Made by a program: the position numbers and the translations under genes. From assembly GCA_019058365.1 (NCBI GenBank), contig JAHPZE010000002.1, forward strand, positions 266,991-330,990: 64,000 bases of DNA. Reading direction: 5' to 3'. Origin of the DNA: Promethearchaeota archaeon (GTDB taxonomy: Archaea > Asgardarchaeota > Lokiarchaeia > Sigyniarchaeales > SOKP01). Positions 38,625 through 46,197 of this stretch are shown one piece after another (within the stretch, counting starts at the first letter, position 1; each line of letters starts with the position of its first letter). Under the pieces are notes generated by a model. That model was given only the letters and a program-made list of their open reading frames with translations, had not been told where the DNA came from and did not search any database.

Positions 38625-39536
38625 TTATACTAAATGATGAAATTCTTCAGCATTAATAATGACTTCTTTTAAAATTTGAAAGTTTTTATCCTCTCCATGA
38701 ATTAAAAATATCTTATTTTTGATTGGAATTGCTGCTTCTTTTCCGATTAAAACCCATTCTTCTTTAATTAAATTTCTAACTATTGAACCTTCTTTAAATT
38801 TAATATAAACTAATGCTCCTAAAAAACCATTAAATTTAGTTTCTTCAAGTTTCACATCTTCAAAGTCGGGAATTTCATTATTTTTACCTTCATTTTTAAT
38901 CTCATATTCAGTTTTACTCAATAGCAAATTTAAATTAGCTTGAATTAAATTAATATCATTCTCTATATTTCTTTTATAATTGTACTCGAAAATGATAAGA
39001 CCACATTCCTGTGTAAATGTTCCTTTATGACCTATCAGTTCATAATCATATACTATTCGACCTAAAGATTCTGAATGTTCGATAACTTCTGATTTTACTT
39101 TCCATCTCTTTGAAATAAGAGGTTCTATGTATTTTTGAGAACCAGGATGGATGGTATCAATCGTTAACTCTTTTTTTTCTTGATATAGTTTATCTAGAGT
39201 ATCGCCAATATACAACCTCTTTTGTTTTAGGTTCTCAATCTTTCCTTCCAGATTAACTAATATTTCATTAAAAATTTCCAAGGGGGGTTTAGCTATAAAT
39301 TTCATCCTTCGAGGTTGTTTTCTTATTTCTAAAACCTCAATCCAACCTTTATCACTCAGTTTTTCTAATATTCCATATAATGTTGTTCGTGCAATTTGAA
39401 GATTATATTTTAATCTTCCTACCATATCGCCATTGTGCCCTCTTTCAACTAATGCTAAATAGACTATAGCTTCGTCAGCAGTTAAACCAAAATCTTGTAA
39501 ATCTTGAATATATATTTCTTTTTCCTTATCTTTCAT
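38625..39536 (-). CDS. TrmB-family HTH regulator (paralogue of the 43356-44606 gene, without profilin domain)
   Basis: FGLTADEAIVYLAL...RTTLYGILEKL..KGWI; shares CGLIIFEYN and PI.NKI with the paralogue. Confidence 0.8.
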   Translation of the reverse strand: MKDKEKEIYIQDLQDFGLTADEAIVYLALVERGHNGDMVGRLKYNLQIARTTLYGILEKLSDKGWIEVLEIRKQPRRMKFIAKPPLEIFNEILVNLEGKIENLKQKRLYIGDTLDKLYQEKKELTIDTIHPGSQKYIEPLISKRWKVKSEVIEHSESLGRIVYDYELIGHKGTFTQECGLIIFEYNYKRNIENDINLIQANLNLLLSKTEYEIKNEGKNNEIPDFEDVKLEETKFNGFLGALVYIKFKEGSIVRNLIKEEWVLIGKEAAIPIKNKIFLIHGEDKNFQILKEVIINAEEFHHLV

Positions 39537-39590
39537 ACTTTTTCATAAATTATATAATAATTAATTAACATTTTTTATTATATAAATATG

Positions 39591-39610
39591 TTGTCGAGAA
39601 AGGACGACAA
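39591..39610. promoter_or_regulatory. Palindrome TTGTC-N10-GACAA
   Basis: ttgtcgagaaaggacgacaa, adjacent to the minus-strand TATA of the TrmB gene. Confidence 0.6.
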
Positions 39611-39674
39611 TAAGAATTTATTTAAATAGAATTCTTATTTTTGTTTATTTAGATAATTTAAAAATTGAAATAAG

Positions 39675-40376
39675 ATGATAATTGTGAGTAAAAGTAAAAA
39701 AATATGTGAAAGAATCCCTGAGGGTGAAGCAATATTAGATCAGATTGACTTCACAACAGAAGAATATAGTGAAGCATGCAGAAAAATGGAAGGAGAATAT
39801 CGGCGTTTGATAAATTTCATATTTAAAAAACTTGATATTAAAGAAAATTCAAAAATTTTAGAGATCGGGCCAGGACCAGGATGGATTGGAATTATGATGG
39901 CAAAACAAGATCCTTCACTGACAATAATTGGAATTGAACTTTCTAAAGATATGATGCGTGTAGCTAATAAAAACATAAGAAAGGAAGATATTGATGATCG
40001 AATTTCTTATATTCACGGAAATGCTGAAAATATGTATCAATTTTTAGATAATACATTCGATGTTGTTTTTGGAAATGGTACCCTTCATCATTGGGAAAAT
40101 CCTATAAATGTATTTAATGAGATTTTTAGAGTTCTGAAACCAGATGGTGTTTTTTGTATTTCTGATGGTCGACGAGATATAAGATTAGGAGCAAAAGTAA
40201 TTTTTCATACAATGAAATGGTTTATCCCTAAATTTATGAGAATTGGTTGGAAAACTTCAATAAATGCGGGATACACACCCGAAGAATTAACAGAAATATT
40301 AGATCAATCAAATCTAAAAGAAAATTATGAATTAAAAGCTGATCTTTTTGATATATTAGTTTATAATAAAACTTAA
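39675..40376 (+). CDS. Class I SAM-dependent methyltransferase
   Basis: ILEIGPGPG, LHHW, RVLKPDG. Confidence 0.88.
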   Translation: MIIVSKSKKICERIPEGEAILDQIDFTTEEYSEACRKMEGEYRRLINFIFKKLDIKENSKILEIGPGPGWIGIMMAKQDPSLTIIGIELSKDMMRVANKNIRKEDIDDRISYIHGNAENMYQFLDNTFDVVFGNGTLHHWENPINVFNEIFRVLKPDGVFCISDGRRDIRLGAKVIFHTMKWFIPKFMRIGWKTSINAGYTPEELTEILDQSNLKENYELKADLFDILVYNKT

Positions 40377-40864: not shown

Positions 40865-40896
40865 AGATAGTCGTTATATTTAAATAGTATGATTCG

Positions 40897-40934
40897 TATG
40901 ATCATATTAATATGATCATACCTATATGATCATA
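40897..40934. repeat. Three TATGATCATA palindromes at 14-bp period
   Basis: Copies at 40897, 40911 and 40925; degenerate copies at 40888 and 40939. Confidence 0.85.
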
Positions 40935-40953
40935 TCAATATGAATCTTAAAAG

Positions 40954-43355: not shown

Positions 43356-44606
43356 TTAAAGTTTTAAGATAATACTCAATAAAATTGGAAATTGTTCTTC
43401 AGAACCCCAAACGACATAGATTTTATTTTGAATAGGAACAGCTACATGCCTAGCTGCTACAATCCAATCCAATCCAACATTATTTCCCGTCTCAGTTCCT
43501 TCTTTAAATTTAAAATACATTGTCATTCCTAAATAATCTTGAATTTTTATATCCTCAATTTTAATATCTTCAAGATCAAGAATCGTAAATTCTTTTATAT
43601 CAAGATCGGGTTGTATTGGTTCTCTCATTTTTTCTGAAGAAAGTTGTAATGCTGCTCTGATAATAACTTCTTCCTTTACTTTTTTATTATATTCAAAAAT
43701 AATAAGACCACAATCTTTTTCCTTTCCCGTTATTCCAAGGGTGTTAAAATCAAACGATTTTTTGCTGTATAATTGAAAATCTTTCTTTATTTCTGAGATA
43801 TCCATCCATCCATTCTCAAGCGTCTCACCCATTATATACCGAAAACTCTTTAAAATTTTTAATTCCTCTTCTTTTTGTTGAATTCTTTCATCAAATATGC
43901 TTGTTAAGGGTCTTGCTACAAAATATTGTGCACTTTTTGGTAATAATGGCAATTTTATTATCCATTCTTTGCTAATTAAACGATCAATAATACGATAGAT
44001 AGTTGTTCTTTTAATGGATAAATCTTCATCTAACTCACCTACTTTTGCCCCTTTATTCCCCTTTCTTAGCAAAGCTAAATAAACTTTGGCCTCTTCAATA
44101 CTCAACCCAAATTTAAGTAATCCAAGCTCTTGCAAATTATTTGTATCATCAAGAAGTATTCTTGGAGTTGCCCATTTTAATTCTTCTACTTTTCCTAACT
44201 GGGCATCTAAATCCATATAAGGCTTTTTTGAACTTAAATTGTGTAATGTTCGAGATGCTTCCATCATTCCGAGTCGCATTATTCCATCTGGAGCAATTTT
44301 ACAAATAATCTTCCTCTCTTCATCTTTAAAACCTAAAATTCTTCCTTTTTGAATAGGATCTATCCCAATCAATCTTTCAGGAGTACACTGTATTATTACG
44401 TATTTAATATCTGAAATTGTAAGATAAGTATGCTTCATTAATTTCCAAACCGAGATAATTTCATCAATATCTTCGCTAATATTCCAATTCTCTGTTGAAT
44501 ATTCTATTTCTCTATCTCCTTTAATTATTGCGGCTGAAATTGTTTTTGATTCAGATTCTATGAGTTTATTTAGAGCATATTTTACCTTTTCCATATTTAG
44601 CTTCAT
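43356..44606 (-). CDS. Profilin-like domain fused to TrmB-family HTH regulator
   Basis: Residues ~1-125 (AAII...TENWNISEDID...LTISDIKYVIIQCTPERLIG...KGRIL) match Lokiarchaeal profilin motifs; then FGLSIEEAKVYLAL...RTTIYRIIDRL. Confidence 0.75.
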   Translation of the reverse strand: MKLNMEKVKYALNKLIESESKTISAAIIKGDREIEYSTENWNISEDIDEIISVWKLMKHTYLTISDIKYVIIQCTPERLIGIDPIQKGRILGFKDEERKIICKIAPDGIMRLGMMEASRTLHNLSSKKPYMDLDAQLGKVEELKWATPRILLDDTNNLQELGLLKFGLSIEEAKVYLALLRKGNKGAKVGELDEDLSIKRTTIYRIIDRLISKEWIIKLPLLPKSAQYFVARPLTSIFDERIQQKEEELKILKSFRYIMGETLENGWMDISEIKKDFQLYSKKSFDFNTLGITGKEKDCGLIIFEYNKKVKEEVIIRAALQLSSEKMREPIQPDLDIKEFTILDLEDIKIEDIKIQDYLGMTMYFKFKEGTETGNNVGLDWIVAARHVAVPIQNKIYVVWGSEEQFPILLSIILKL

Positions 44607-44653
44607 CTTCTCTTTTTATATTAAGTTAAAAAAAAAAAATATTTTACAATTAG

Positions 44654-44860
44654 TTATTTTTCTCCAAATTTTTTTTTTATTTCATCTAATACCTTTTTAA
44701 AATAGCTTTTTTCTTTAGATTCCTGAATTTCTATAAAATAGTCAGGCACGATTAATTTCTTAGATTCTCTTTTTATCTCTACGTCTATCCAAATTATCCC
44801 ATCATCCAACACGATACAAGGTATACCTTCCAAAAGTTTTATTCGTGTCATTTTCATCAC
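44654..44860 (-). CDS. Small hypothetical protein between actin and the profilin-TF
   Basis: 68-aa co-oriented ORF; gaps of 27 and 47 nt. Confidence 0.55.
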   Translation of the reverse strand: MMKMTRIKLLEGIPCIVLDDGIIWIDVEIKRESKKLIVPDYFIEIQESKEKSYFKKVLDEIKKKFGEK

Positions 44861-44887: not shown

Positions 44888-46033
44888 TTAAAAACATCGA
44901 TGGATAACTTGAGGCCCCATCTCCTTGTATTCTCTTCGAGTAATCCACATTCTATGAAATGTTTTTAAGGAACTTAAGATAGATCCTCCTATCCACACAG
45001 AATACATTCTTTCTGGAGGAGCGATTATCTTTACATCTATAGATTCAGCAACTTGTTCCTTTATTTCTCGAGTTAGACGTTCTTTAATTCCCGGAAACAT
45101 TGTAGAACCACCTGAAAGGACAATATTACTATAAAGATCTCTTCGTAAATCTACATCGCATTCAGAAATTGCTCCTACTACTACATCATCTAAAGGAGCT
45201 AATTCCTTACCAACCACAGAAGGATTAAATAAGCACTCTGGAGCTAAGAATCTTTCAATCCCTATTGTAATTGTTTCACCATCTGGAAGCATGAAATTCT
45301 TTGCCATACCAGCTACTTTATTTGAAAGTAAAATCTCTTTTTCAGGTTCAATAGCAACATAGCAAAGTTTTTCTTTTATTTCTCTTACAATCTGTTTTTC
45401 TGCAGAAGTATAAAATGAGTATCCATTTTGCCTTAATAATCTTTGTAAGTACGTTGTAACATCCCTTCCAGCAAGATCAATTCGCTCTATTGCATGGCTT
45501 AATGCAAATCCCTCAAAAATTGGTACAATATGTGCTACTCCATCCCCTATATCTACTACACATCCAGTAGTTCGACCAGAAGCGTAAAGTGATAAGACTG
45601 CTTGTGTTGCGATATAAAGAGCAGGAACATTGAATGTCTCGAACATTATTTCGGCCATTTTTTCTCTATTCGATCTTGGATTTAAAGGAGCTTCTGTTAA
45701 TAACACTGGAAATTCTGAAGGATCGATTCTTAGATCAGTATAGAATGTATAATGATATATTCTTTCCATTGCTGGCCAATCCTCAACGACTCCATGTTCA
45801 ATAGGAAACTGTAAATTCATTATTCCTTTTAATTCCATAGCTTCCTCACCAATATACCACTCACGGCTATAATCCTTTACATCAGGCATAATATTTCCAT
45901 ATTTTGGTTTACCGATAACAGTAGGGAATACTGAACGAGGTTGATCTTCTCCTCCAAATCCATTTTTTGATATCCCTGTCCCATTATCTATAACAATTGC
46001 TCTATTTTTTCTAAAATCCCCGTTGACTGAAAT
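44888..46033 (-). CDS. Eukaryote-like Asgard actin, 381 aa from an ATT start
   Basis: PIEHG, LLTEAPLNP, YASGRTTG, LPDG, SGGSTMFPG, SVWIGGSIL, HRCF. The phosphate-1 loop IVIDNGTG..K.GF lies in frame upstream of ATG 45889. Confidence 0.93.
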   Translation of the reverse strand: MSVNGDFRKNRAIVIDNGTGISKNGFGGEDQPRSVFPTVIGKPKYGNIMPDVKDYSREWYIGEEAMELKGIMNLQFPIEHGVVEDWPAMERIYHYTFYTDLRIDPSEFPVLLTEAPLNPRSNREKMAEIMFETFNVPALYIATQAVLSLYASGRTTGCVVDIGDGVAHIVPIFEGFALSHAIERIDLAGRDVTTYLQRLLRQNGYSFYTSAEKQIVREIKEKLCYVAIEPEKEILLSNKVAGMAKNFMLPDGETITIGIERFLAPECLFNPSVVGKELAPLDDVVVGAISECDVDLRRDLYSNIVLSGGSTMFPGIKERLTREIKEQVAESIDVKIIAPPERMYSVWIGGSILSSLKTFHRMWITRREYKEMGPQVIHRCF

Positions 46034-46098
46034 TTTAAAACCACCTCTTTTTTATTTTATTGTTTTATAGATAGAATGAAAATCATAATATTTAAAAC

Positions 46099-46118
46099 TT
46101 GTCACATAATGGTGACAA
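46099..46118. promoter_or_regulatory. Palindrome TTGTC-N10-GACAA at the actin promoter
   Basis: ttgtcacataatggtgacaa, adjacent to the minus-strand TATA-like TTTTAAATA (46089-46097). Confidence 0.65.
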
Positions 46119-46197
46119 TTATGTTATGCAACTTTAACAACAATCAAGAAATCAAAAATAATTATTTTAAAATTATTATAAAGCAAAGAAGAGTATA

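Follow-up and report, generated by a model that had tools for sequence, protein, structure and literature searches.

TrmB, the regulator of the TM operon in Pyrococcus furiosus and Thermococcus litoralis, represses malE from a site at the BRE/TATA, and the TGM motif of TrmBL1/Tgr is TATCAC-N5-GTGATA (PMC4158304). The palindrome from which TFB-RF1 (PF1088) of P. furiosus activates stands immediately before a weak BRE, at a distance that is conserved (PMC5937170), and the several sites of the Ss-LrpB and Ptr2 arrays share a helix face and are spaced by two or three turns (PMC2995911). Asgard profilins (PDB 5YED/5YEE, 5ZZB, 5ZZA, 7PBH) stand alone as proteins. MAL/MRTF-SRF, a system of animals, uses RPEL and MADS domains. 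It lets actin feed back on actin mRNA (PMC4035534). In the literature covered, which included few subscription papers, we found no cis-regulatory element for an Asgard actin gene, no profilin-transcription-factor fusion and no cassette of the kind described below.

Within a window of 64,000 nucleotides (the whole stretch of DNA that was analysed), we studied an actin promoter with a palindromic site at 46099 and the regulator gene downstream of it. By the labels of its homologues and its matches to lokiactin and profilin, the genome belongs with the Loki-type Promethearchaeota. The system is like TrmB and TrmBL1/Tgr in its PF01978 winged HTH, coiled coil and palindromic operator; as in TrmB, the position relative to BRE and TATA would set the sign, and the regulator is encoded within the cluster that it presumably represses. 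TGM resembles the 46099 site, but arms and spacer differ: the TGM regulon has TATCAC-N5-GTGATA at many sugar-metabolism promoters, whereas here we found one strong site per genome, TGTCAC-N6-GTGACA. Unlike in TrmB and TrmBL1, there is one target and not a sugar regulon, an extra N-terminal profilin domain is present, and the C-terminal domain is unmatched to the sugar-binding domain. The layout of TFB-RF1 equals that of a second site, at 39591, towards a methyltransferase gene, a likeness in geometry alone; its motif differs (TCTG-N5-CAGA), and the actin promoter, with a site that overlaps a good BRE, does not have this arrangement. A phased array is shared with Ss-LrpB and Ptr2, but these belong to the Lrp family and have their functional core site before the BRE, not on it. 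Residues 1-130 of the regulator are homologous to Asgard profilins in sequence and fold and are predicted to use the same actin face; here, however, the domain heads a DNA-binding regulator, and its actin binding is a prediction. With MAL/MRTF-SRF the possible logic is alike, although the proteins are unrelated to the fusion. Judging from sequence, we regard the system as a variant of the TrmB-type operator system, set apart by its target and its profilin domain. What this analysis adds is the array with its 11-bp period, the contrast in geometry between the two sites and the fact that they dissociate.

The actin-2 cassette

The cassette, defined as a second lokiactin plus the profilin-TrmB fusion, reads on the minus strand in the order 46099 site, TATA, Shine-Dalgarno sequence, ATT start, actin, 68-aa ORF, T12 tract and 416-aa regulator (Table 1).

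Table 1. Positions of the features discussed (numbering of the window)
Feature	Position	Strand	Remarks
Short TrmB-type paralogue, without profilin domain	38625-39536	-	303 aa
TATA-like box of short paralogue, TTTATATA	39579-39586	-	5 nt after GACA core
Sister operator, TTGTCG-N8-CGACAA	39591-39610		Divergent promoter, short TrmB paralogue/methyltransferase
TATA box of divergent methyltransferase unit	39621-39628	+	11 nt from GACA core; weak BRE
SAM-dependent methyltransferase	39675-40376	+	Divergent neighbour in 21/22 orthologue loci
Regulator: profilin domain, TrmB-type winged HTH, coiled coil, C-terminal alpha/beta domain	43356-44606	-	416 aa
T12 tract ahead of regulator gene	44628-44639	-	T runs of at least 7 in most orthologous intergenic stretches
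68-aa ORF	44654-44860	-	No Pfam match; in only some cassettes
Actin-2, second lokiactin paralogue	44888-46033	-	381 aa from ATT
Shine-Dalgarno sequence, GAGGTGG	46041-46047	-	Precedes non-canonical ATT start at 46033-46031
TATA box of actin-2 promoter (predicted), TTTAAATA	46089-46096	-	3 nt after GACA core
Proximal operator of actin-2 promoter, TTGTCAC-N6-GTGACAA	46099-46118		Heptamer slots -21 and -10 from TATA
Degenerate distal heptamer pair	46122-46139		Slots -32 and -43; 22 bp upstream of proximal site

Actin-2 is 84% identical to the canonical lokiactin copy (contig C39), and its orthologues share 81-85% identity with canonical lokiactin and a mean of 83% among themselves, the greatest divergence from lokiactin being at residues 38-90. 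It is a spare paralogue and not the near-invariant canonical lokiactin core copy. The apparent ATT start behind GAGGTGG (46031-46047, minus strand) is kept in most same-genus orthologues, and the same start codon is ATG or TTG in other actin-2 orthologues; gene calling restricted to ATG drops the phosphate loop of actin-2. The T12 tract could possibly act as a partial terminator, and co-transcription of the regulator with actin-2 may therefore be partial.

Of 135 family genomes, 47 gave a match to the fusion (two remnants included); outside this one family it was not found in the 301 phylum genomes searched. At every locus with upstream DNA assembled and intact it is located behind actin-2. 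Natural deletions were seen at L035:5915-6268 and L167:1994-2308, where the regulator gene is reduced to its 3' end; both remnants adjoin the same glyoxalase-like gene, the cassette being lost from this island. In genome G005, actin-2 and the operator are lost and only a fusion remnant is left. Another lokiactin duplicate (93%; L183:3828-4994, genome G067) has a different N-terminus and no operator.

Conservation of the actin-2 operator

The first-pass annotation of this DNA had described two 20-bp palindromes with identical 5-bp arms and spacing, each directly upstream of a minus-strand TATA-like box at the head of a unit that encodes one of two TrmB paralogues, with the recognition helices RTTIY and RTTLY. 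Both palindromes are present with these arms and spacing, and the helices were confirmed in proteins that are 33% identical over 284 columns. Both boxes exist as well, but the fixed partner of the 39591 site is the methyltransferase TATA, a feature absent from that annotation, as was the degenerate distal pair at the actin promoter.

The two 20-mers are the sole matches to TTGTC-N10-GACAA in the window (0.03 expected), and two matches were reached by none of 100 shuffles, for a pattern that was picked only after the sites had been seen. Across the 4.74-Mb genome, the exact pattern is at background (three matches vs about 1.9 expected, and other spacer lengths alike), the third match lying within apparently coding sequence (C30:60130); the proposed genome-wide scan thus yielded no cytoskeletal regulon. 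We take the significance of both sites to come from their conservation; the counts alone prove nothing. A sigma-70 promoter scan is inapplicable to archaea.

The phylogenetic footprinting that had been suggested bore the sites out in 42/42 and 22/22 promoters. In all 42 readable cassette promoters, from four genera (39 anchored automatically, 3 by eye), a TGT[C/G]ACA array with an 11-bp period places its last unit over the BRE, and the array is kept while the flanks diverge. Heptamer peaks fall at -10, -21, -32 and -43 from the TATA, one helical turn apart (41 distinct promoters). The TATA is nearly invariant among 39 aligned promoters, and AA stands at -4/-3 in 39/39 of them, in agreement with the pair of adenines by which the archaeal BRE is defined (PMC4158304); in the 46099-46118 palindrome it is the terminal AA that occupies the BRE position. 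The distal pair is weak by itself here (-5.5 bits) and was deduced from the orthologues. Several g22 promoters carry a full palindrome 11 bp further upstream, a position that could permit activation, and in one group a single half-site at -10 accompanies a perfect palindrome at -32/-21. Because the genomes are relatives of one another and most are incomplete, such counts are non-independent and absences are soft.

Exact TGTCAC-N6-GTGACA occurred in 31 of 154 genomes, once in each, and a control pattern in none; 28 of the 31 matches head a cassette. As for those away from a cassette, the match in G080 belongs to a full promoter that stands where a contig ends, probably through a break in the assembly, and those in G059 and G110 have no TATA beside them and seem to be due to chance or to be relics. 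The operator-like palindrome of G110 (L180:4624-4643) is perfect and lies between convergent genes of a 100%-complete genome without a fusion match.

A matrix trained without this genome found the 46099 site as the sole strong site in the genome (26.7 bits). The next site, at 15.5 bits, is in coding DNA, and weaker hits were no more numerous than with permuted matrices. Scores below zero were obtained for the lokiactin promoter and for those of four actin-related and four profilin-like genes. In the genomes surveyed, the site was absent from canonical lokiactin promoters (matrix scores no higher than 0.5), and no promoter site was present at loci that have extra actins but lack the factor. We also considered the 46099 site as a regulator of the divergent CpXC gene (46198) and rejected this, since that neighbour changes between genomes and actin does not.

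The profilin-TrmB fusion and its short paralogue

The winged HTH matched PF01978 with 41.7 bits in the fusion and 40.9 bits in the short paralogue (cut-off 25.6), and the match was found in 79/79 homologues. The recognition helix KRT[T/H]IYRI is invariant in the fusion; no RTT[I/L]Y helix was present in the other PF01978 matches of this genome. A long helix (85-119) follows the winged HTH as in the coiled-coil dimerisation of TrmB/TrmBL2, and the closest structural match was TrmBL2 (5bpd; Z 13.4, rmsd 1.9, 101 aligned), with TrmB (3qph) at Z 10.4. Fusion and short paralogue form one clade with a tree support of 100/100, from which the shared core of their sites can be taken as inherited. More distant members outside this clade carry differently spaced TGT-type sites. 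Upstream of distant family members (L036, L037, L038, L039, L088 and L092) we saw their own palindromes beside divergent TATA boxes, and the TGTGTA arms of the RTNIYP group suggest helix-site covariation. At C18:8300-8390 of genome G000, between another PF01978 gene with a different helix and a small Cys-rich ORF, GTGACA stands 3 nt before a TATA together with two more half-sites, in no palindromic pair.

The C-terminal domain, common to the fusion and the 303-aa paralogue, had no Pfam match, the TrmB sugar-binding domain included. Foldseek gave weak matches only (LpqN, EagT6, PA94 and PknH sensor; E 4e-3 to 1e-2), in lists dominated by the winged HTH; these matches we take to be PsbP/Mog1-like. 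Its conservation is 0.72 vs about 0.6 for the profilin domain.

Residues 1-130 are homologous to Loki profilin-1 (E 2.8e-13) and adopt the profilin fold (Z 19.3, rmsd 2.1, 118 aligned to Odin profilin), so the N-terminus is a true Asgard-profilin homologue. Modelled on actin-2, the domain was put on the usual actin face with a score of 0.69 (best control 0.00), which may include memory of solved profilin-actin structures; contacts agreed by at least 89% between runs, and the pLDDT of the partner was at least 81. The mark for complex scores is reached by 58 of 80 solved pairs and by 2 of 110 mismatched pairs, and the score of such a model indicates likeness to solved complexes, not binding. The contact residues Q73, F93 and D95 are conserved, and the profilin-facing surface of actin-2 is identical to that of lokiactin at all listed positions; taken together, the predicted interface residues do not exceed the remainder of the profilin domain in conservation (0.57 vs 0.61).

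The profilin domain has its closest paralogue (42%) at L223:2338-3684, the same as G000 C16:240337-241683, where a profilin-like part is joined to a leucine carboxyl methyltransferase domain (PF04072, E 1.6e-33); this protein is possibly an actin-targeted methyltransferase. Further profilin-like proteins of about 210-240 aa with C-terminal extensions (L222:2966-3697 and L224:1943-2638) have matches in most relatives.

Two sister operators and their proposed roles

Exact TGTC-N10-GACA lies upstream of 22/22 short-paralogue orthologues (44-100% identity), and the core precedes just 5 of 3325 genes in this genome. From the site to the methyltransferase TATA there are 11 nt in 20 of the 22 and 12 nt in the other 2, whereas the distance to the paralogue's own TATA varies (2, 3, 5, 22 nt or none). 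The conserved spacing thus belongs to the methyltransferase, and the earlier view of 39591 as chiefly the paralogue's own promoter site is not supported. AA at -4/-3 was found in 1/22 methyltransferase promoters. The geometry favours an activator type for the 39591 site, 11 bp before a TATA with a weak BRE, and a repressor type for the actin site, which overlaps the BRE. The first-pass annotation had allowed recruitment or occlusion of TFB; by geometry, each would have its place: actin would be subject to occlusion, and recruitment would apply to the methyltransferase, the putative activated target of the short paralogue. Elsewhere in the window (40888-40948), 14-bp-periodic TATGATCATA repeats stand ahead of a double-AbrB gene.

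The sites had also been proposed as one operator and as the autoregulatory site of the family. They do share a core, but their inner bases and geometry differ; each is a local site of the two-paralogue clade, as tree and footprints indicate. A match to the short-paralogue clade was missing from 32 of 41 operator-bearing genomes (mostly incomplete assemblies, which makes such absences soft), and 13 genomes with the short clade but without an intact fusion retain the short clade's site. Each site therefore outlives the absence of the other factor, which argues for two local operators that are sisters and have inherited their core, rather than for one shared switch.

For the actin operator, the fusion is the best candidate factor and would be its binder. 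From the observed conservation, geometry, co-occurrence and domain homology we infer DNA binding, its sign and co-transcription, and consider it likely that the fusion binds the 46099 operator and represses the actin-2 unit, that its sister activates the methyltransferase, and that there is no wider regulon. A fusion dimer would read two TGT[C/G]ACA heptamers one helical turn apart at 46099, and further dimers probably join upstream in phase. Occupation of the last heptamer would cover the BRE and most likely block TFB, so that the actin-2 unit, including the regulator gene itself, is most likely repressed. The sister would have kept the same ancestral core and most likely activates the methyltransferase from just upstream of its weak BRE, each factor acting on its own locus. 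The least certain part of this explanation is the effector: we hold it possible, at somewhat less than even chances, that monomeric actin (actin-2 or lokiactin) on the profilin domain alters the grip on the operator, so that the actin pool would set actin transcription in a one-protein prokaryotic circuit.

Part of the evidence could be read otherwise. The same factor and site might work as a switch, low occupancy filling the upstream slots and recruiting TBP/TFB and high occupancy filling the BRE slot and repressing, or there may be plain activation. The four phased slots, the group whose perfect palindrome lies at -32/-21 and the precedent of Ss-LrpB as a concentration-dependent dual autoregulator (PMC2995911) point this way. 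We nevertheless judge it unlikely, as the strongest site includes the BRE slot here and in most orthologues, the consensus-like actin-2 BRE (39/39) makes recruitment unnecessary, and the actin slots and the activator position of the sister are offset in phase by 3 bp. Rather improbable, too, is one shared operator through which the short paralogue controls actin-2 as well and ties it to the methyltransferase and detoxification genes. Besides the shared core, it has in its favour that the short-paralogue matrix ranks the actin site second in the genome (18.1; training minimum 18.5) and that here, as in several other genomes, the two factors are encoded within about 10 kb of each other; but the core is accounted for by shared ancestry, most operator-bearing genomes lack a sister-clade match, and the actin matrix scores the sister site low (9.9; training minimum 10.8, most above 19). 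Weak cross-binding where both factors occur is possible but not required.

The remaining alternatives concern the signal and the site itself. The operator may be real and actin not the signal: a small molecule binding the shared C-terminal domain or the profilin-like fold would then induce the spare actin under chemical stress. The sister manages with no profilin domain and stands opposite methyltransferases, the surroundings have a detoxification-like look (ORFs which we take to encode methyltransferases, one of them Pfam-tested, and peroxiredoxin-, glyoxalase- and UvrA-like proteins), and the C-terminal domain is the better conserved one; against it stand the constant place of the fusion behind actin-2 wherever the upstream DNA is assembled and intact, the lokiactin-like profilin-facing surface and the conserved contact residues. 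We would not quite give this reading an even chance; a small-molecule signal is about as plausible as an actin signal, touches the effector only and is compatible with repression of actin-2 by the fusion. That the palindromes arose by chance, form an RNA hairpin or terminator, or merely reflect a conserved BRE is scarcely credible, even though exact counts are at background genome-wide and a terminator scan lists a hairpin at the site. The arms are invariant and the loop variable, direct-repeat variants are unable to pair, and the site lies upstream of the TATA; GACA fills the BRE slot in none of 399 surveyed TATA promoters; the core is rare upstream of genes; and the footprints already contradict this reading.

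Repression of actin-2 by the fusion remains our preferred reading, and it comes with an operator of exactly 40 bp, a candidate for the factor and a predicted sign; the sister factor and its site, which lack the profilin domain, serve as a built-in control. With these in hand, coupling between actin state and transcription in a prokaryote becomes testable with purified parts, without culture. Because the fusion was found in one family only among the 301 phylum genomes searched, its likeness to MRTF-SRF is at most convergence, and its restriction to one family and a spare actin speaks to convergence and not to eukaryotic ancestry. An actin signal, if true, would make this a prokaryotic circuit that lets actin control an actin gene, convergent with MRTF-SRF.
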